Below, piece after piece: positions 3,866-40,128 of a stretch of DNA of 64,000 nucleotides. Each line of letters begins with the position of its first letter. Position 1 is the stretch's first letter. The stretch covers positions 114,171 to 178,170 of the forward strand of contig CAWBKA010000014.1 in the NCBI GenBank assembly GCA_963789065.1. The letters run 5' to 3'. The stretch is from an uncultured Verrucomicrobiae bacterium. GTDB lineage: Bacteria > Verrucomicrobiota > Verrucomicrobiia > Chthoniobacterales > JAFAMB01. A model generated the notes under the pieces. It worked only from the letters and a program-made list of their open reading frames with translations, did not search any database and had not been told where the DNA came from. The position numbers and the translations under genes were made by a program.

Positions 3866-4089
3866 TCTGAACCTCCGCGCCCACCGTGCCCTCCGTGCGA
3901 GCCATTCTCCTTCCGGCTAAGCCGTTTTTGGATCCGATCCCTTTTCGCGTCCGCCCGGCGCGGCCTTCTCAAAATGTCCAAACTCCAGGGACGCGCTCCC
4001 GCGCGTCCGCCATCCATTTGTACCAGACAAGTTCATAGACCTCTTTCGAGAGGCCGGCCGACTTCCAGATGGCTGATCCAGCAGGGGAA

Positions 4090-9917: not shown

Positions 9918-10025
9918 AGGTGAGAGGTGAGAGGTGAGAGGTGAGAGGTGAGAGGTGAGAGGTGAGAGGTGAGAGGTGAGAGGTGAGAGGTGAGAGGTGA
10001 TAGGTGAGAGGTGAGAGGTGAGAGG
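9918..10025 (+). repeat. Heptamer tandem array (GGTGAGA), about 15 copies
   Basis: Read directly from the sequence. Confidence 0.98.
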
Positions 10026-10049
10026 TATAGACCCCGTTACCCCTCTGCG

Positions 10050-10370
10050 CCGCCAAACGCCGAACGCTGAACGCCGAACGCCGAACGCCAAACGCCAAAC
10101 GCCAAACGCCAAACGCCGAACGCCGAACGCCGAACGCCGAACGCCGAACGCCGAACGCCGAACGCCGAACGCCGAACGCCGAACGCCGAACGCCGAACGC
10201 CGAACGCTGAACGCTGAACGCCGAACGCCGAACGCCGAACGCCGAACGCCGAACGCCGAACGCCGAACGCCGAACGCCGAACGCCGAACGCTGAACGCTG
10301 AACGCCGAACGCCGAACGCCGAACGCCGAACGCCGAACGCCGAACGCCGAACGCCGAACGCCGAACGCCG
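10050..10370 (-). repeat. Heptamer tandem array (GGCGTTC on minus; GAACGCC on plus), about 45 copies
   Basis: Read directly; variants AAACGCC and GAACGCT. Confidence 0.98.
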
Positions 10371-17225: not shown

Positions 17226-17248
17226 AGGGAAGGAGCCGAAGGGAAGGA

Positions 17249-17495
17249 GCCGAGTAGCCAGTAGCCAGTAGTCGGTAGGCAGTAGCCGAGTAGCCGAGTA
17301 GCCGAGTAGCCGAGTAGCCGAGTAGCCGAGTAGCCGAGTAGCCGAGTAGCCGAGTAGCCGAGTAGCCGAGTAGCCGAGTAGCCGAGTAGCCGAGTAGCCG
17401 AGTAGCCGAGTAGCCGAGTAGCCGAGTAGCCGAGTAGCCGAGTAGCCGTAGCCGTAGCCGGGAGCCAGTAGCCGAGGAGCCGGTACCAGGTAGCC
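17249..17495 (+). repeat. Octamer tandem array (AGTAGCCG), about 21 perfect copies plus degenerate flanks
   Basis: Read directly. Confidence 0.97.
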
Positions 17496-17859
17496 GATGA
17501 AGCTTTGACCGCGGCACGTGCTGCGCAGGGGGGGTCCGCTTGGCATTACCATGAGCGCGGTAAGATTCAAGCGAAGCGTGGTAGGCGACCGCGGCCGGCG
17601 CGGCACCCCCAAAGAGGATCGGTTCGGCGCGTCGCGCGGAACGGCGCTTTTTTACTCTCGACATCTCAACCCTCCGTGAACCCGTGGCCTCCGTGTGAGA
17701 ACTCGGGCAGCTACGTCACGCGGTCACACGCCGACGCGGCCCATACGGTCTTCTTTTGGACTGCCACGCCGGACGCGCGGGAGCGCGTCCCACGCCATGC
17801 GGGCAGCTACAGTCACGCGTTGAACGATTGTGGGTGTGCACGTGTTGGCGTCCTCGGTA

Positions 17860-17940
17860 TTCGCCTACTCGGCTACTGACTACTGACTACTGACTACTGA
17901 CTACTCGGCTACTCGGCTACTCGGCTACTCGGCTACTCAA
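17860..17940 (-). repeat. Inverted partner array (CTACTGA / CTACTCGG on plus) overlapping the recO stop codon
   Basis: Read directly. Confidence 0.95.
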
Positions 17941-20028: not shown

Positions 20029-20253
20029 AAGGTGAGAGGTGAACGGAGGTGAGAGGTGAGAGGTGAGAGGTGAGAGGTGAGAGGTGAGAGGTGAGAGGTG
20101 AGAGGTGAGAGGTGAGAGGTGAGAGGTGAGAGGTGAGAGGTGAGAGGTGAGAGGTGAAAGGTGAGAGGTATCCCTCGCGCCCGCCGAACGCCGAACGCCG
20201 AACGCCGAACGCCGAACGCCGAACGCCGAACGCCGAACGCCGAACGCCGAACG
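20029..20253. repeat. Head-to-head heptamer arrays: (GGTGAGA) about 19 copies, then (GAACGCC) about 10 copies
   Basis: Same two units in the same order as at 9918-10370. Confidence 0.97.
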
Positions 20254-21055: not shown

Positions 21056-21152
21056 GTAGCCAGTAGCCAGTAGCCAGTAGCCAGTAGCCAGTAGCCAGTA
21101 GCCAGTAGCCAGTAGCCAGTAGCCAGTAGCCAGTAGCCAGTAGCCAGTAGCC
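21056..21152 (+). repeat. Heptamer array (AGTAGCC), about 13 copies
   Basis: Read directly. Confidence 0.97.
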
Positions 21153-21318
21153 GAGTACCGAAGACGCCGACACGCGTAAGGCACGAGCGATTGACCAACA
21201 ACGGAAGGGCCTTCCGTGATCCCCCGTGACCTCCCTGCGAGCCTTCCCTCTTCCGGCGCTTGAGCCATGAAGGTCAGATCCCTTGATTCCATGGAATCCG
21301 CGTGAGCCGTCGGGCTCG

Positions 21319-21386
21319 CATTGTGACATGGGCGTCCCGCCCCGTGCTCGCACGAAGATCACGGGCGGGACGCCCATGCCACAATG
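21319..21386. repeat. REPIN-like inverted doublet of a second REP family (GTGAC/GTGGC-ATGGGCGTCCCGCCCGTG)
   Basis: 27-bp inverted repeats with one mismatch. Single copies near 46912, 47142, 50126 and, more diverged, 6014. Confidence 0.85.
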
Positions 21387-21621
21387 AGTCGCCGCAAGAA
21401 AAACGTATCATCTGATTTCCCCAACGCCCCAATGTCGTCTAGTACGCATCAGGAGATCTGAAGGTAGAGAGTTCTCGCACGGAGGCGACGGGGGGTGAGA
21501 TGTTGAGAGAGAAAGAGCGTTGTTTCGCGCGACGCGCCGATTCCGACCCTCCCTGGAGGTGACACGCCGGATCGCGTCCAGGATCGCGTCCCTACCATGT
21601 CTTGCGGGCTGCCATGCCGAA

Positions 21622-21821
21622 TCTACTCGGCTGGCTCCTGACTCCTGACTCCTGACTACTGACTACTGACTACTGACTACTGACTACTGACTACTGACTA
21701 CTGACTACTGACTACTGACTACTGACTACTGACTACTGACTACTGACTACTGACTACTGACTACTGACTACTGACTACTGACTACTGACTACTGACTACT
21801 GACTACTGACTACTGACTACT
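21622..21821 (-). repeat. Heptamer array (CTACTGA on plus), about 27 copies, overlapping the stop codon of the adjacent gene
   Basis: Read directly. Confidence 0.97.
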
Positions 21822-23552
21822 CGACTCCTTGACTACTTGCCTTAAATCATAAATGCGCCCCCAGGATCCCTCGGCGACCAAAGGACAACCTTCTTCCCAT
21901 TTTTTTGCGGAGTCGGGATAATTTGTTTCTTCGAGCGGCCCCCAGAAGAGGTAATCGGCGCCGAGGTCCTTTGCGTTTTGTTCCCAGCCCGGCTCTGAAT
22001 TCATCAGAGAGACAAGCTTGATTTCCACCGGTCGATAGTTGAGCCCGTGGCTCCACATATGGCCGGGGTAACCCATGACAACCCGATGCCCGTTAACTAA
22101 GACCGGATGATTATAGGTTGGGTATCCGGCGAATACGACGCTCGGCGGCAAGGAGCGGGTAGCATTCGCCACCTGCTGCCATTCGCTTTCGTGGCCGATC
22201 TCATAACCCTCCGGATTTGCCCAAAGCCCGCCTGCGAGACTAACAAAGCCCGAGAAAAAGAGCCCAAAAATGACCGGGGCGCGTAAGAGAACGTGCCATT
22301 TTGCCAAGAGTCCGTCCCAAAGGCAGAACATCATGACCAGATAGGCCCAGAAAAAGAGCTTCGTATTGTCCCACTCCCAGGGAGCAAATTTAATGAAGGA
22401 ACAGGCGGCGAAGACCGTTGCTGCCGGGAAGAACAACAGTCGCAATTTTTGCTTCGCATCGCGCATGAAAGGCTTGGCAGGGATCAAGAGGTAGATCAAA
22501 AGTCCGAGGCAGGCTGGCAGGAACAGGCCGAAATTCTGAAGCCAGAACCACCAGGCAGCTTCTTTTGGATCAGCCATCCAGCCTGGTTTCCAGCCGATCG
22601 CTTCGGTCTTGGCAAATCCGGTCACTGCGTACACGCAGAGAGTGGCCGGGATGGAGGAGAAGAGAACGAGCCGAAGAAGGTGACCTCGCCAGTTTGGGTC
22701 GCCAAACAAAAACCACCAGAGAAGAAGGAAAGACAAGAATATAAAGGTGTGCAGATGAAAGAGCGGCATGGTGCAGTACAGCAGGTATTCCGCCCAGAGC
22801 GGAAGGCGTCCCTCCGGTCGGCGCTCGAGCAACAAGGTTCGCCAGTGATAAAGGAGTAACAATCCTGCCGGGACGGCGTAGAGCAATCCCCGCTGAGTGA
22901 CGAACATCGCGAGCGGGATCGATTTCCATGGCAGATCCGCCTGATAATCTTTGAGGGCAAAGGATTGAAAGAAAAGAAAACCAGCCAGTCCGCCATTAAA
23001 AAGAAAGGCGGCAACTCCAAACGCGCCGTTAAAGAGGAAAAGGGCCCGCAGAGTGAGGAGCGATCCCAAAAACCCGACCAGAATGATGCCTGCCTTGGGT
23101 TCAACGCCAACCAGTTTCAGCTCGGCATTGAAAAGATTCAATCCGATTGGATATCGAAGTTTGTCGAAAGCAAAAATCGGATTCTCCGGCCAGAAGTGGG
23201 GATTGCTCGCCAGATAATTGATATGCGTAAGATGAAGGCAGATATCTCCAATATTGTTTGGTGAGATGACTCGAATCTGGTCATTCCACACGAAGATGAC
23301 CTGGCTGAACTCCCTTATCGCAAAAACAAGAAAAAGAAGGCAAACGACATAGGCGAAGATCCCGTGGCGCGGCGCCGTCTCGCCTGGTCTTTTTTTCAGG
23401 TGCCTTATCATCGGGACGCCAGCGAGAACCAACCCGAGGAGCAAGGCAATCAAAGAGGTCGACGTTGTCAGTCCCAGGGGTGAGTAACTAAAGAGAATCC
23501 CGAGGAGGGTGGAAATGGCTATCCAGCAAAGAACCAGGACTGAGAGATTCAT
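21810..23552 (-). CDS. Polytopic membrane protein, probable GT-C-type glycosyltransferase
   Basis: About 12 TM segments, GDICLH loop, PWEWDNTK and a C-terminal soluble domain; overlaps the upstream gene by 4 nt. Confidence 0.6.
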   Translation of the reverse strand: MNLSVLVLCWIAISTLLGILFSYSPLGLTTSTSLIALLLGLVLAGVPMIRHLKKRPGETAPRHGIFAYVVCLLFLVFAIREFSQVIFVWNDQIRVISPNNIGDICLHLTHINYLASNPHFWPENPIFAFDKLRYPIGLNLFNAELKLVGVEPKAGIILVGFLGSLLTLRALFLFNGAFGVAAFLFNGGLAGFLFFQSFALKDYQADLPWKSIPLAMFVTQRGLLYAVPAGLLLLYHWRTLLLERRPEGRLPLWAEYLLYCTMPLFHLHTFIFLSFLLLWWFLFGDPNWRGHLLRLVLFSSIPATLCVYAVTGFAKTEAIGWKPGWMADPKEAAWWFWLQNFGLFLPACLGLLIYLLIPAKPFMRDAKQKLRLLFFPAATVFAACSFIKFAPWEWDNTKLFFWAYLVMMFCLWDGLLAKWHVLLRAPVIFGLFFSGFVSLAGGLWANPEGYEIGHESEWQQVANATRSLPPSVVFAGYPTYNHPVLVNGHRVVMGYPGHMWSHGLNYRPVEIKLVSLMNSEPGWEQNAKDLGADYLFWGPLEETNYPDSAKKWEEGCPLVAEGSWGRIYDLRQVVKESSSQ

Positions 23553-25138
23553 TCGTTCGATCGTCCCGGCTCGAACTCTGGTTTACGATCTGGAAAGATT
23601 TCCCTGAATGTTTCGTAACGAAAATACGCGCGGCATTCGTCCATGCCGTCACGAAGTCGAAAATCATCGGTAAAATATCGATCTTTGAGGCTCTTTTCCA
23701 ATTTATCGGCCTTTTGTCCGTCCACGACGATGAAGTCAGCGTCGAGATTCGGGGGCCAGGCACTCTCCGTACTGTAGTAGTCGATTTTGGGAAAATCCCC
23801 CAGAACCCAGGGAATGGGAAAGTAACTGGACAACAGCACGAGACCCTTGAGTTTGATCTTCGACTCCGGGTCCTTCGCTCCTTTTTCCAGGATTGGATCC
23901 ACGAAGGTCCGATATTCACGAAAGGTCTGTACGTACACGTAGCGCTCTTTTGCGTGGTCGAACTTGACGAAATTCAGATCGTAAGACTTCCACGCAGCGT
24001 GAGCGAACAATGGCAACGCCGCGATTACGGCTACCACTCGATTGAGTCGCTTGGCGATAAATTCGAGGAGAGCGGCGCCAAGGAACAAAAAAGGCCAGGC
24101 GATTGATATAATACACCACGGAGTTTTGTACGGAACGATGCTGTAGATCAGGAGTACGCCCAGGCCGTAAAACGCCAGGAATCGAAGCGCTGGATGGCCG
24201 CCCGCGAAGAACCGAAATGAAAACACTAAGCCGGCCAAAGCGAACCACTCGTAGTCCAGGAGCAGACGTATCCAGTACCAATTCAGTTTGAAATTCCCGA
24301 ATGCCCCGAGGACCGGCACATGGGCAAGAAATGGCGGGACCAAGGGCACCAGGTCAAACTCGGACTTGCCGTGCCCGGCCGCGTCGATCGCTGTCTTGGT
24401 CCACGGAAGAAATGTCTGGTAGAGTCCTGCTAACCCCCTCCAGTAGAGAAAATTGCCGGAATAGAAGAAAACGATCAGTGTCACTCCGAGCAAAGTCGCC
24501 CCAATAATATGTCGAAAAGGGAGTCGTCCGCTTGCTCGATGCAACCCCGGGTCCGACGGCAAGAGCTTATTCAGGATCGAAACGAGAAGGCCCGCAGCGG
24601 CAAACGCGGTCAGATGAATGATATAAGTCTCTTTGGTCAGAATCATTCCGGTCACACCCAGAATGAACCCCCAAAAATACTTCGGTTCCCGGCAGGTCGA
24701 GATTCCAAGGATACCCCAGAAGGTGACGATGAGGAACAAGACCAGCCAAGACTCGTGAATGGAGTAGCGATTATAAAAAATGAAGCCGGGAGAAATGGCC
24801 ATCCCGAGTGCAGCCAGATAACAGACAGTTCGGCTGAGAAATGGCCGGAACAGGAAGATCCAGAACATGGCCAGCAGGCTTGCCAGGACCACCGGCAGTC
24901 TCAGCGCCCAAAGGTTTCGCCCGAATAGCTTGAGCGAAACAAAAAGAACATAAAAGTGAAATGGTCCGTGATAATTGGTCGGGTCGTATGCGTAATAGCC
25001 GTTTTTGGCCATCTGGTCACAGAACCAGCCGTTAATTCCTTCGTCAAAATGCGGCGGCTTGATGTCCAGGAACGCCACCCGAATAAGTGCTCCAAGCAGC
25101 AGAATCAGCGCTGGAAATAGGAGTTGACGTTTCACCAT
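23549..25138 (-). CDS. TIGR03663 / Agl23-like GT-C (PMT-like) membrane glycosyltransferase
   Basis: PPHFDEGIN, YDPTNYHGP, YNRYSIHE, TKETY, YKTPW and YVYVQT motifs. Confidence 0.8.
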   Translation of the reverse strand: MVKRQLLFPALILLLGALIRVAFLDIKPPHFDEGINGWFCDQMAKNGYYAYDPTNYHGPFHFYVLFVSLKLFGRNLWALRLPVVLASLLAMFWIFLFRPFLSRTVCYLAALGMAISPGFIFYNRYSIHESWLVLFLIVTFWGILGISTCREPKYFWGFILGVTGMILTKETYIIHLTAFAAAGLLVSILNKLLPSDPGLHRASGRLPFRHIIGATLLGVTLIVFFYSGNFLYWRGLAGLYQTFLPWTKTAIDAAGHGKSEFDLVPLVPPFLAHVPVLGAFGNFKLNWYWIRLLLDYEWFALAGLVFSFRFFAGGHPALRFLAFYGLGVLLIYSIVPYKTPWCIISIAWPFLFLGAALLEFIAKRLNRVVAVIAALPLFAHAAWKSYDLNFVKFDHAKERYVYVQTFREYRTFVDPILEKGAKDPESKIKLKGLVLLSSYFPIPWVLGDFPKIDYYSTESAWPPNLDADFIVVDGQKADKLEKSLKDRYFTDDFRLRDGMDECRAYFRYETFREIFPDRKPEFEPGRSNE

Positions 25139-25186
25139 TCTAAGCATTTAGGAAGGAGGCGCAGATATATATGCGAAGACCGGGAC

Positions 25187-25942
25187 ATGTCCAAACAGAT
25201 TCGACCTCTACTTTCACTGATCATTCCTGCGTTCAATGAGGCGAACCGGTTGCCTGACTCGATCCGACGTATCCAAGAACATCGCCGTTCTTGGAACTTC
25301 TCTGTCGAGGTAATCATTGTCGTCGAACCGAGTGAAGATCGGACGCTCGACTTAGCGGAAAATGCGGTCAAATCCTGGTCCGACCTGAGAGTGCTGACCC
25401 ATCACGAAAAGCGTGGAAAAGGCTTTGCGGTGCGTAGTGGCATGCTTCGTGCCAGAGGCGATTTGATTTTTTTCACGGATGCTGATTTAAGTACCCCGTT
25501 GGAAGACTTGGACGCCGCGCTCGCATTGTTCAAACGTGACCGATCGATTGATTTGGTTGTCGGGAATCGGATGCATCCTGAGAGTCAAATTCTGCAGCGG
25601 CAGAATGTGGGGAGAGAGTGGATGGGAAAAGTCTTCAATCGGATCGTGCAAACGTTAACCGGTTTGCGCATCCGGGATACCCAGTGTGGTTTCAAAGGCT
25701 TTCGAAACCGTGCGGCGAAGGAGATCTTCGGTCGCCAGAGGATTGATGGTTTTTCATTTGACGTTGAGGCTTTACTATTGGCTCGAGCGATGGGTTTCGC
25801 GGTCGCTGAACTACCGGTTCACTGGACAAATTCTCCGGCTTCGCAGGTCCACCCTGTACGCGACAGTTCGCGGATGCTCGTTGATGCGATCCGCGTCGGC
25901 AGGCTGGTGAAACGGACGATGTACGAGTTTCCTTACAGGTAG
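25187..25942 (+). CDS. GT2 polyprenyl-phosphate glycosyltransferase (Dol-P-Glc/Man synthase-like)
   Basis: LSLIIPAFNE, GKGFAVRSG, FTDADLSTP, DTQCGFK and FSFDVE. Confidence 0.92.
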   Translation: MSKQIRPLLSLIIPAFNEANRLPDSIRRIQEHRRSWNFSVEVIIVVEPSEDRTLDLAENAVKSWSDLRVLTHHEKRGKGFAVRSGMLRARGDLIFFTDADLSTPLEDLDAALALFKRDRSIDLVVGNRMHPESQILQRQNVGREWMGKVFNRIVQTLTGLRIRDTQCGFKGFRNRAAKEIFGRQRIDGFSFDVEALLLARAMGFAVAELPVHWTNSPASQVHPVRDSSRMLVDAIRVGRLVKRTMYEFPYR

Positions 25943-25963
25943 AGCAGGCGAATCAATCTCGCG

Positions 25964-26349
25964 AAAGGGTCCACGCTCCCGCGTGACCGGCGTGGAATTT
26001 TACCCAAAGCTCGGTAGGGTCCACGCTCCCGCATGACCGACGCGGAATTTACCCAAAGCTCGGTAGGGTCACGCTCCCGCGTGACCGACGTGGAATTTAT
26101 CCCAAGCTCGGTAGGGTCACGCTCCCGCGTGACCGACGTGGAATTTATCCCAAGCTCGGTAGGGTCACGCTCCCGCGTGACCGACGTGGAATTTACCCCA
26201 AGCTCGGTAGGGTCACGCTCCCGCGTGACCGGCGTGGAACTACCCCAAAGCACGGTAGGGTCACACTCCCGCGTGACCGACGTGGAATTTACCCCAGAGC
26301 TCGGTAGGGTTACGCTCCCGCGTGACCGGCGTTGAGCTACCCCAAGCTC
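25964..26349 (+). repeat. REP array: 8 x ~48-bp units, each GTAG + GGTCACGC-TCCC-GCGTGACC hairpin
   Basis: Units start near 25966, 26016, 26065, 26113, 26161, 26209, 26257 and 26306. Confidence 0.95.
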
Positions 26350-26421
26350 TCAGAGACCTAACATTGCCTCCTGCAAATATTTGACTTCAATCGAAATATA
26401 AATACAACATATATTTAAGTT

Positions 26422-26892
26422 GTGAATATCGATCCATTTCCACAACGGATTCGGCCTGACAAGGGTGTGCTGAGCAAAGAGCATCAGCCCACATTGGTTT
26501 TTGCTACCATCTGCACAAAAAGCCGTACCCGGTGGCTGGCGACGGACGAAAACCATCATCTTCTGCGGACTATCTGGACGGAAGCCACCTTCTGGAAAAT
26601 CGGGCCGTATATCATTATGCCTAATCATTTGCATTTTTTCGCATGGCCTGGGCAGCTCCACGCCGACCTGGATAATTGGATTCAATATTGGAAGTCTGTG
26701 GCCACAAAGCGCCTGGGCAAGCCGGACTGTCGATGGCAACGTGCTTCGTTTCATCATCGTGTCCGCTCTTATGAAGACGCTGACAAGTGGCGTACCTATA
26801 TGTACGAGAACCCTGTCCGAGCGGGTCTTGTTGTAAAGGCATGCGACTGGCAATATGGCGGAGAGTTGTTCAAAACGGATTTTTGGTGGTAG
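26422..26892 (+). CDS. REP-associated tyrosine transposase (RAYT / TnpA-REP, Y1 HUH family)
   Basis: FATICT, YIIMPNHLHFF (HuH), WQRASFHHRVRS and YMYENPVRAGLV (catalytic Tyr); flanked by inverted REP arrays. Confidence 0.92.
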   Translation: MNIDPFPQRIRPDKGVLSKEHQPTLVFATICTKSRTRWLATDENHHLLRTIWTEATFWKIGPYIIMPNHLHFFAWPGQLHADLDNWIQYWKSVATKRLGKPDCRWQRASFHHRVRSYEDADKWRTYMYENPVRAGLVVKACDWQYGGELFKTDFWW

Positions 26893-26905
26893 GTCTCGGG
26901 GAAAT

Positions 26906-27138
26906 GCCACGCCGGATGCGCGGGAGCGCATCCCTACCGGCGCCGTTCGAGAACGGGAGCTTCGAGACGTGCCACGCCGGACGCGCAGGAGCGCATCCCT
27001 ACCGGCGCGGTTCGAGAACGGGAGCTTCGAGACGTGCCACGCCGGACGCGCGGGAGCGCATCCCTACCGGCGCGGTTCGAGAACGGGAGCTTCGAGACGC
27101 GCCATGCCGGACGCGCGGGAGCGCATCCCTACCGCGCC
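26906..27138 (-). repeat. REP array: about 3.5 x 65-bp units, each (minus strand) GTAG + GGATGCGC-TCCC-GCGCGTCC hairpin
   Basis: Units start at 26906, 26971, 27036 and 27101. Confidence 0.95.
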
Positions 27139-27216
27139 ACATGCGCGGCCTACGTCACGCGTCCAAGCGCCGACACGTCGATACGCCGATACGCCGATAC
27201 GCCCCCACGCCTCCCT

Positions 27217-28815
27217 TCACATCGCTGGAGTCAAGAGTGCGAACACCTTTTTATTATTTACCGACGCGACCAGGCGGTAGTGGCTTTCGATAAATTTAGT
27301 CATCTGTGTCGCCCAATGGGAGAAACGAGACTCTTCGGTGCCGTTGATCGTCCAGTCATCGATTACGATGACTGCCGGGCGAAGTTTTTGAATTTTGGCG
27401 ATCTCGACTTCCTGCCAGTCCGGTGATTGAGTCACGTTGTCAATGTAGAGGAGATATTGGAATGTCGGGCGCGCAGTGATGAAATTTACCCCTGGCAGGT
27501 AAGGATAAGATACGACGTAATCCTTTTTTGTGCTGTTCCAGACAATCGCCGAAAAAAGAGCGTTTACTTCTTCGTGCTCAGCCTTGGTGAGAAATACGTC
27601 GACTCCGTTGGCGCCGCGGAAGTTGGTGTGTCGACCCACCCGGATCGCCAGGGTGCCTCCATATTGATTCGGAAGGGTCAGCATAAGATAGCAGACGCCG
27701 ACCAGAGCAATCGCGATGAGGAACGCCATCGAGAGCCGACCTCGGCCCAGGCTTGACCAAAGCAGCCAGCCGGCGCAGGTCAAAGCGACCAAGGCTCCAC
27801 TCATGAATTCAATCAAGTGAGGCAAGTCGGGGCGAAAGAAGAAGAATTGGGGAAAAGCCGCCAAACAGCCGCCCAGCAAGGCCGAGAAGATCAGCCAGCG
27901 ATCGACCGCCATTTTTTTGGACAGACAAAGGTAAAGGCCGGCGAAGAACAACCCACAAATCAGGAGCAGCGGGAGGTAAGTCAGCAAAGCCAGGAGACGA
28001 TATTCAATTCTCGTCGATTTCGAGAATATTTGCTGGAAAGGGCGACGACGAAGGTGAGTCGGCGGTTTGGCAACCGGTCCTGGGTGATTTTCCACCACGG
28101 CGGCGGGAGTGGCTGGGCCATGCGCGACATTGGTCTGATCCGGATTCTTGGCGAGTGTCTGGGTAAAATGCGGCAGGATAGGCTGGAAGATAACGCTCGC
28201 GACGTTGGAGTATTGGTCGGCGAACGGCTCAAAGAAATGCCGATGACGCGCGTCGTAGATAAAGGGCAGGTGCATGACCGAGATACCGATGAGAAAATTG
28301 CCCGCGACGATCATATTCAAGCGGAGTTGCCGATGCAGCAGAAGAGCGTGCAATAAAATGACGCCAAGCCAGATCGCCGTTAGAAAAATCCCGATATCGA
28401 TGCGGATCAGATAAGTAGTTCCGAGCAGAAGCCCCGCGCCGATGCTTAGCAGAGCCTTTCGTTGGCTCGTTAAGAAGAGGGTGATCGCGAACAGATTCGA
28501 AAGGACAAGGAACGGTATGTAGGCCTTAAAATATTGGCCGGTCACCGAAATCACCGCCAAACCTTGGACCAGCGAGAGCCAGAGAGGAGCATCCAACCGC
28601 CGAAGGAGCACAAAGGCGATCAGGCCGGAGGCAGTCGATATACTATAAAAATAGGTCCGCATCAGGAGCAGACTGGTGCCGAAAACCCGGAAGAGGGTGC
28701 TGATGGGGTAGAACCAGAGAACGTTGTACCCGGGAGACACGTCCAAAAAAGGGCGTTCGCCGTGCATCAGTCGTTGGCTGATGAGCGCCACATTTCCTTC
28801 ATCGGCGAGATTCAA
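27217..28815 (-). CDS. Polytopic membrane protein, probable GT-C-type glycosyltransferase (true start probably near 28912, behind a frameshift)
   Basis: LADEG...GERPFLD loop after TM1, many TM segments, RPDLPH and a C-terminal soluble domain. Confidence 0.65.
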   Translation of the reverse strand: MNLADEGNVALISQRLMHGERPFLDVSPGYNVLWFYPISTLFRVFGTSLLLMRTYFYSISTASGLIAFVLLRRLDAPLWLSLVQGLAVISVTGQYFKAYIPFLVLSNLFAITLFLTSQRKALLSIGAGLLLGTTYLIRIDIGIFLTAIWLGVILLHALLLHRQLRLNMIVAGNFLIGISVMHLPFIYDARHRHFFEPFADQYSNVASVIFQPILPHFTQTLAKNPDQTNVAHGPATPAAVVENHPGPVAKPPTHLRRRPFQQIFSKSTRIEYRLLALLTYLPLLLICGLFFAGLYLCLSKKMAVDRWLIFSALLGGCLAAFPQFFFFRPDLPHLIEFMSGALVALTCAGWLLWSSLGRGRLSMAFLIAIALVGVCYLMLTLPNQYGGTLAIRVGRHTNFRGANGVDVFLTKAEHEEVNALFSAIVWNSTKKDYVVSYPYLPGVNFITARPTFQYLLYIDNVTQSPDWQEVEIAKIQKLRPAVIVIDDWTINGTEESRFSHWATQMTKFIESHYRLVASVNNKKVFALLTPAM

Positions 28816-39460: not shown

Positions 39461-39742
39461 AAGTAGTCAGTAGCCGGTAGCCAGTAGCCAGTAGCCAGTA
39501 GCCGGTAGCCGGTAGCCGGTAGCCAGTAGCCAGTAGCCAGTAGCCAGTAGCCGGTAGCCGGTAGCCGGTAGCCAGTAGCCAGTAGCCAGTAGCCAGTAGC
39601 CAGTAGCCAGTAGCCAGTGAGTCGCCAGTAGCCAGTAGCCAGTAGCCAGTAGCCAGTAGCCAGTAGCCAGTAGCCAGTAGCCAGTAGCCAGTAGCCAGTA
39701 GCCAGTAGCCAGTAGCCAGTAGCCAGTAGCCAAGTAGCCAAG
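39461..39742 (+). repeat. Heptamer array (AGTAGCC/GGTAGCC), about 38 copies; inverted partner tract at 40137-40189
   Basis: Read directly. Confidence 0.97.
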
Positions 39743-40128
39743 TAGGAGGTAGCCGAGCGGCCCCGACCTCGAGTGGCAAGCGACGCGCTGCGGCGTGGAA
39801 CGTCTGATAAGCTTCCTTTCGCTGGTTTTGCCACTGGCAACCATCTAACCTCGATCCCTTTTCGCGCGTGGACGCGCGAGAGCGCGTCCCGTACCGCACC
39901 AAACGCGCAACCATGCCAGAAGAAGTAGTCAGTAGCCAGTAACCAAGTAGGAGGTAGCCGAGAGGACCCGACCTTGAGTGGCAAGCGACGCGCTGCGGCG
40001 TGGAACGTCTGATAAGCTTCCTTTCGCTGATTTTGCCACTGGCAACCTTCTAAGCTCGATCCACTTTTCGCGCGCGGACTTGCGGGAGCGCGTCCCGTAC
40101 CGCACCAAACGCGCAATCATGCCAGAAG
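39736..40128 (+). repeat. Two direct copies of a ~187-bp non-coding module, each ending in a REP-like hairpin
   Basis: 39736-39921 versus 39941-40128, highly similar. Confidence 0.93.

Follow-up and report, generated by a model that had tools for sequence, protein, structure and literature searches.

A RAYT gene between two foot-outward arrays of one REP family in a verrucomicrobial genome, with comparative evidence for changes of site and orientation in its genus

RAYT proteins (TnpA-REP) are called non-jumping in reviews (10.1101/2021.07.10.451892), and residence at a single site, stated for strains within a species, is typical of a RAYT without defining it. The spread of REPs and the way in which a RAYT exchanges one REP partner for another are described as open questions (PMC8266576), the mechanism of such "orthoswitches" being called speculative in PMC3686654. 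A 64,000-nt stretch of contig CAWBKA010000014.1 from an uncultured Verrucomicrobiae bacterium (hereafter the window; its assembly is denoted G000) contains a RAYT gene lying between two tandem arrays of GTAG-footed hairpins of unlike sequence. How did two kinds of array come to bracket one gene, how did they grow, and does the gene stay where it is?

The features of the locus are collected in Table 1. The original prediction described a compact 156-aa Y1 HUH protein with eight 48-bp units upstream and about 3.5 units of 65 bp downstream on the opposite strand; all three elements are there, the upstream units measuring 48 or 49 bp and the downstream array comprising four hairpins. In both arrays the GTAG foot is directed away from the RAYT gene. 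The right element reaches further than had been thought: the array is present as described and then continues to about 27211 through a leader and a run of CGCCGATA octamers. Similar leaders accompany genomic copies on contigs C4, C19, C21, C44 and C48, and the octamer run is also found at the orthologous site of the genome G001. The vestigial foot at the RAYT stop codon marks the position where full REPs start in several more distant relatives (e.g. L110, L120, L041). Three junctions (those between the gene end and the left array, the RAYT and the right array, and the right array and the membrane gene) are identical in contigs from public runs, which may include the source sample and in which no contig spans the locus. 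The predicted verrucomicrobial host is supported by a record titled Chthoniobacterales (L055), whose flanking genes are 83-97% identical to those of G000. Orthologues of the left-hand glycosyltransferase occur in 13 of 18 genomes of the genus.

Table 1. Features of the RAYT locus, from left to right neighbor (positions in the window).
Feature	Position	Strand	Basis
Glycosyltransferase family-2 host gene, left neighbor	25124..25942	+	PF00535, E 1e-23
Left REP array, subtype A, 8 units of 48-49 bp	25964..26349	+	
Predicted sigma-70 promoter, TTGACT-16 nt-TACAAC, 13 nt 5' of start codon	26381..26408	+	
RAYT / TnpA-REP gene, 156 aa, GTG start	26422..26892	+	
Vestigial REP foot GGTAGG, overlapping RAYT stop codon	26888..26893	+	sequence
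Gene-proximal right REP, subtype B stem with the clade's usual gene-proximal tail	26890..26937	-	comparison with 6 relatives
Three more right REP units, subtype B, period 65 bp	26938..27137	-	
5' leader and CGCCGATA/CGCCGACA octamer run, typical of dispersed B/C-type REPs	27138..27211	-	
Membrane protein host gene, 532 aa, right neighbor, convergent with glycosyltransferase	27217..28815	-	

The protein is a RAYT and not a TnpA of the IS200/IS605 type, as predicted. Its HUH motif (H69-L70-H71) and Y126, which lies within YxxxNP (Y126-M-Y-E-N130-P131), are invariant in 20 aligned sequences; HUH plus YxxxNP is given as the RAYT signature in PMC6006769. Residues W105, Q106, H112 and R115 correspond to the E. 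coli guide contacts W94, Q95, H101 and R104. Four of the five guide residues are thus kept; the fifth position, E100 in E. coli, is H111 here, with His throughout the close clade and Asp or Glu in more distant rows. The HMM check proposed at the outset, with Pfam PF01797 (Y1_Tnp), gave no hit. NCBIfam NF047646 is the sole family match, at 62 bits and below its cut-off of 80, a value that less closely related members of the clade exceed (101 and 105 bits). E. coli TnpA-REP (4ER8) is the sole PDB sequence match; it is retrieved at E 2e-16 by a profile of 19 clade members, against 0.017 or worse for IS200/IS605 TnpAs, and is the best fold-search match of the predicted structure (pLDDT 84; TM 0.68, rmsd 2.4). 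The proposed phylogeny gave the same answer. In a 56-row tree whose class-1 side consists of six IS200-like proteins from related genomes, the protein falls on the RAYT side of a 100/98 branch, within a clade of nine close rows supported at 100/100. The sister pair carries B-like REP stems; E. coli RayT shares a 98/95 branch with the clade without being its supported sister, and Pseudomonas is represented by one row only.

The gene is under purifying selection (dN/dS 0.08-0.14 in 15 of 15 pairs) and occurs once in the assembly, which is 73% complete. A tblastn search with the protein found no match in plasmids; viral contigs gave 10 distant matches only (26-31% identity). The spacing of the predicted promoter recurs in three of seven relatives by regular-expression search, and most others show an AT-rich equivalent; a consensus sigma-70 scan did not call it. 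An allele 92% identical has TACAAT (T at 26408) and ATG where the window has TACAAC and GTG, which makes the present activity of the window allele uncertain. The description of the locus as active is not supported.

The left array is built of subtype A units, GTAG-GGTCACGC-TCCC-GCGTGACC (TRF period 48, 7.6 copies, 91% matches), and the right array of subtype B units, GTAG-GGATGCGC-TCCC-GCGCGTCC (period 65, 3.5 copies, 96%), with GTAG starting at 27132, 27067, 27002 and 26937 on the minus strand. The GTAG-footed form that had been ascribed to every unit applies to most: left unit 1 has the foot AAAG, and the stems of left units 1 and 2 are bulged (GGTCCACGC), a form common among relatives. The 8-bp stem with its TCCC loop is the minimum-energy fold in seven of nine single-unit strands folded. 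Folding z-scores are -2.3 to -2.5 for left units and about 0 for the GC-rich right units. The stem differences, originally presented as compensatory, comprise two fully compensated pairs (T-A to A-T and A-T to G-C) plus one G.T wobble. The short second inverted repeats (5 bp) claimed for the linkers are not convincing, being perfect in one unit per array only, with linker hairpins at chance level. CT sites lie outside the hairpin in every unit. A CRISPR array was ruled out, the linkers being near-identical within each array rather than variable spacers, and no Rfam match was found across 25000-28000.

Genome-wide, the family comprises 331 cores with at most 2 substitutions, against none in a Markov-3 control genome, and 160 of these have the exact GTAG foot. 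The count of both repeats, suggested as a check, assigns 206 cores to subtype B, 93 to C, 11 to A and 21 to other forms. Seven of the 11 A cores belong to the left array. This array thus carries a rare subtype, typical of the window RAYT's clade, and the right one carries the commonest subtype of the genome. Since the exact A, B and C patterns occur in largely the same 7-8 of 19 genomes of the genus, they are regarded as subtypes of one family. The cores form 229 clusters: 168 singlets, 24 simple inverted doublets (a count that would miss partners degenerate beyond 2 substitutions) and a remainder of mixed or tandem clusters. Neighbors within 300 bp are foot-outward in 34 cases, foot-inward in none and in the same direction in 68. 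As the original prediction held for the two arrays, the repeats of the family are not mainly the inverted doublets of REPINs and BIMEs. A second, distant RAYT in G000 (C24:49864-51222) shows the same layout with a different repeat, in inward arrays of 13 x 35 bp and 7 x 40 bp; a third RAYT-like gene (C1:12560-13809) has its own repeat family in alternating BIME-like doublets. Because the assembly is incomplete, another RAYT that serves subtype B may be missing from it.

Several other repeats and Y1-type genes were recorded in G000. Tandem arrays of 7-8 bp are numerous and intergenic throughout the genome (in the window at 9918-10370, 17248-17938, 20030-20253, 21056-21837 and 39462-39745, for example). 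Those of GGCGT type lie within 150 bp of a REP in 63 of 156 cases, usually 5' of it and on its strand; for four other classes the share is 0-20%. GTAG occurs within several classes other than the GGCGT one. At 39718-40128 in the window there is a 205-bp tandem duplication, both copies of which include a REP core and short repeats. A long gene of Y1 type is present in two copies 95.6% identical (C25:44158-45253 and C42:116241-117338), and an IS200-like gene at C13:113832 is situated among repeated hairpins.

Thirteen related RAYT loci of at least 70% identity collapse to about eight lineages. Long arrays stand on both sides of the gene in four of these (L007/L008, the G015 group, G016 and L053), with A-type stems on both arms. 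The remaining four have 1-3 REPs per side, and the gene is broken in three of them. In G045, a RAYT 50% identical lies between B-type arrays. With long arrays at the RAYTs of relatives, the layout is a trait of the clade and the mismatched arms of the window locus are the exception. The unit-number polymorphism proposed as a further check was found among near-identical strains with flanks 100% identical, which have 6, 8, 8 and 7 downstream units. Several relatives are short-read contigs, possibly mis-joined across arrays; the upstream region of L007/L008 conflicts with that of L021/L022, so that mis-assembly is possible at that site.

Comparison of gene neighborhoods suggests that this supposedly stationary gene moves. 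In five of 13 relatives with the glycosyltransferase (G006, G007, G008, G010 and G016), the latter abuts the membrane gene at 10-175 bp with no REP between them. Two others have a different REP family there, four have other neighbors and one ends at a contig end. The last, G001, is the closest relative (84% aa) and has at this site a bulged-A plus C-type REP pair with octamers, the RAYT being absent. Close homologues of the gene occupy six other neighborhoods, making seven sites in one genus, and the site is constant within one near-identical strain group. At the ccsA/rbsK site the RAYT has opposite orientations in L053 and L010, and G000 keeps REPs there without a RAYT. At the thioredoxin/epimerase site the orientation in L055 is opposite to that in L021/L022, which retain only about 16 codons. 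Found at six other sites and flipped at two, the gene likely moves. RAYT identities track host ccsA identities for G000, L053 and L010, suggesting that the gene was inherited vertically and moved within the genome. A cross-phylum transfer via L053, labelled Acidobacteriota, was rejected, the rbsK of L053 being 93% identical to that of G001; its flanking genes are 79-93% identical to those of the genus, and the label is likely a mislabel or mis-bin.

Two of the six mappable landing sites of relatives hold the REP family in G000 (background 4.7%, P 0.03-0.10), which lends weak support to a targeting of REP pairs. No target duplication of 7 bp or more was found at the borders in G000, L053 and G045, and none that is convincing in G016 and G015, the latter having a 10-bp inverted match. 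Around L055, at the thioredoxin/epimerase site, 10 bp of host sequence are inverted at both outer edges, a possible trace of an inversion.

Why the arms differ can be read from the right-hand side of the gene. The REP nearest the stop codon combines a B stem with the tail found at the same position in six relatives; the DNA farther out resembles a dispersed B/C element of the kind that G001 carries at the matching place. These comparisons make the gene-proximal right REP the likely exchange point. The arms would then be mismatched because the gene likely landed in a REP pair already resident at this site. An exchange within the shared tail, between the incoming cassette and the resident REP, is the simplest reading, and conversion in place is its main rival. 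According to the latter, the gene is old at the site, its right arm has been converted to the dominant subtype in a half-finished orthoswitch, and G001 has lost the gene. In its favor, PMC3686654 describes orthoswitches, a bulged-A REP occupies the matching position in G001, and the sister RAYT clade (L064, L118) is flanked by subtype B stems. However, five relatives have no REP at the site at all, the sister gene (L053) and the outgroup (L010) are both found at another, common site, the host-type leader and octamers of the right arm are found in G001 too, and the other six sites are left unexplained. We consider conversion in place possible but doubtful. The REP pair of G001 could, rather than a landing pad, be what a lost RAYT left behind.

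The growth of the arrays is a separate matter. The family forms 286 same-strand runs, of which five have at least 4 units, and two of these five are the left and right arms (P about 2.5e-4). The predicted link between amplification and the RAYT locus is thus upheld, and the enrichment of arrays beside RAYT genes speaks for an action of the enzyme in cis, an idea already put forward in PMC3686654. It seems unlikely that the arrays grow through host slippage or unequal recombination with the RAYT as a bystander. The abundance of tandem arrays with units of 7-8 bp (34 TRF rows in the window), the three long arrays that lie away from any RAYT, and the mosaic units and array ends devoid of a CT signature would all suit such a process; the rank of both arms among the five longest runs would not, nor would the recurrence of the layout around the unrelated C24 RAYT, with its different repeat, and that of G045.

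Rolling-circle-type bursts, which the original prediction favored, are improbable here, although a model of this kind is published for BIMEs (PMC3333891), the right units are 96% alike and each unit offers CT sites outside its hairpin. The eight left units comprise seven different sequences, only units 3 and 4 being identical; relatives show alternating two-unit patterns; and array ends have no CT preference (2 of 22 at 3' ends, 0 of 22 at 5' ends). In addition, promoter and start codon look weakened compared with the 92% allele. The diversity of the left units, the two-unit alternations and the lack of CT preference argue for stepwise change over single bursts. Altogether, local, stepwise, RAYT-linked growth fits the arrays better than single-burst rolling-circle amplification.

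A RAYT cassette can also travel as cargo. Genome G017 has about 17 dispersed copies (L156-L173) of a cassette with an internal deletion. The copies are 79-100% alike, share a junction and consist of a REP, the promoter, a short 5' end of the gene joined to about 78 nt of its 3' end, and a REP. This mini-cassette is a REPIN-like element with a RAYT remnant as spacer. Among 17 cassettes examined, 13 have the 17-bp end of a DDE element within 500 bp on at least one side (five on both), and three show target duplications of 18-23 bp; four have no end motif within 500 bp, and two of these, L165 and L173, are not explained by the DDE element. The latter (2,425 bp; L206 and L207, at G017:C28:16047-18471 and 181322-183746) carries a DDE_5 transposase and a DruA-like ORF between inverted ends of 17 bp. 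It inserts in hairpins and duplicates 20-27 bp, one target being a whole REP hairpin. The mini-cassettes were considered as proof of RAYT self-mobility, with ends at CT, and rejected as such since the end motif belongs to the DDE element. Having mostly been moved by a separate insertion sequence, they are evidence of carriage and not of self-mobility of the RAYT. At two other places in G017 (L067 and L157), a transposase is inserted in the loop of A-type REPs. We take the DDE elements to be IS701-like and IS1182-like, the IS1182-like one being the transposase of L067 and L157.

In G000 the end motif is found at about 40 sites, including window positions 3984 and 57190; in several cases it directly adjoins the foot of a REP hairpin, and these hairpins belong to different families. 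Its frequency, together with the G017 cassettes, would be in keeping with passive delivery of the window cassette as a composite transposon by this hairpin-targeting element. We hold this to be very improbable: the motif is absent from the window locus and from 12 related RAYT loci, and the borders in G000, L053 and G045 lack target duplications. Finally, there is next to no chance that the protein is an IS200/IS605-type TnpA with ordinary IS ends, for all its HUH-Y1 fold and its score under the NCBIfam RAYT cut-off: it has YxxxNP instead of YxxxQ and is single-copy, NF033573 does not match it in G000, fold comparison favors RAYT, and profile search and tree refute the assignment.

The reading that we prefer, with a probability of roughly 60%, is that of a REPtron in which the RAYT, set between foot-outward arrays of one family, likely nicks nearby single-stranded repeats, the arms likely grew stepwise, and the gene likely arrived in an existing REP pair. 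TnpA-REP is known to bind a GTAG-footed hairpin on single-stranded DNA and to cleave and rejoin at CT (PMC3333891, PMC8266576). At this locus its action would be biased to the repeats beside its own gene, and nick-primed strand displacement or repair would add or remove whole units over many rounds. The whole locus would amount to a foot-outward REP pair carrying the gene in its spacer, and exchange inside the shared REP stems and tails would shift the spacer to another pair, or flip it. In the window, the incoming piece may have supplied the promoter, the gene and clade-type tails, and the resident subtype B REP, with leader and octamers, would have become the right arm. The exchange might be catalyzed by either the RAYT or host recombination. 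A bolder version can be advanced only tentatively: in this Chthoniobacterales clade the RAYT would not be fully domesticated and would move its own gene by swapping the spacer between any foot-outward REP pairs. The REPtron would then be a giant REPIN, the 34 foot-outward pairs its landing pads and the inversions flips in place, and hybrid REPtrons would seed subtype switches.

One of the closest known systems is the E. coli REPtron (4ER8; PMC3333891), which has the same HUH-Y1 fold, YxxxNP motif and W/Q/H/R guide residues, GTAG-footed hairpins flanking the gene, two or more REP subtypes, a variable repeat number and a single gene copy. It differs in protein sequence (about 24% identity) and at the E100 position, occupied by His in the window RAYT, as well as in its flanks, which are tandem doublets rather than head-to-tail singlets with short 8-bp stems. 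In 74 of 110 genomes, moreover, the E. coli gene keeps one fixed site, whereas the window clade is at seven sites in one genus. The Group 3 / subclass 2.5 RAYT-REPIN systems of Pseudomonas and Stenotrophomonas (PMC3116915, PMC3686654, PMC8266576) resemble the window family in several respects. Their short near-perfect palindromes have 12 nt of foot plus stem, a genome has several RAYT-REP pairs, REP subtypes are switched, novel sites are occasionally occupied, and REPs can form tandem arrays. In contrast, the tree does not join the window RAYT to its one Pseudomonas sequence, same-direction neighbors outnumber inverted ones in its family (68 vs 34), 168 of 229 clusters are single, and the arrays bracket the gene. 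IS200/IS605 TnpAs (IS608, ISDra2) share the HUH-Y1 chemistry, hairpin ends with a 5' guide tetranucleotide and a gene mobile with its ends, but have YxxxQ, are multicopy, possess two distinct ends and lack a dispersed repeat family; the window protein matches them far more weakly.

Neither layout nor host is as unusual as first claimed. The GTAG REPs of Opitutus terrae and Planctomycetes (PMC3733652), compared here by description only, likewise include a verrucomicrobial host, several families and clusters of singletons, those of O. terrae being reiterated in tandem. Tandem REP arrays are described in PMC3116915, and according to PMC6006769 nearly half of REPtrons have two or more REP subfamilies. 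Earlier papers already cover GTAG REPs in Verrucomicrobiota, singlets in tandem, the mixing of subfamilies, orthoswitches, RAYTs at an occasional novel site and a rolling-circle model, and the singlet-array layout may itself stand in the REPtron list of PMC3733652 or the REP table of PMC6006769. In the main text of open-access papers, we found no paper on REPtron inversion, genus-wide relocation, RAYT-derived mini-elements or the window clade.

In conclusion, the locus is a genuine REPtron with a singlet-array layout, and genome comparison gives good evidence that its gene has changed site and orientation. If host recombination does everything, this is an ordinary REPtron in an under-studied phylum. 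A small RAYT with two juxtaposed REP subtypes, strain-level variation in unit number, empty sites and in-place inversions offers a direct test system: one enzyme would serve to assay both subtypes, and flipping or movement of a marked spacer could be scored. Should the RAYT prove to move itself, it would represent a living intermediate between IS200/IS605 elements and non-jumping RAYTs.
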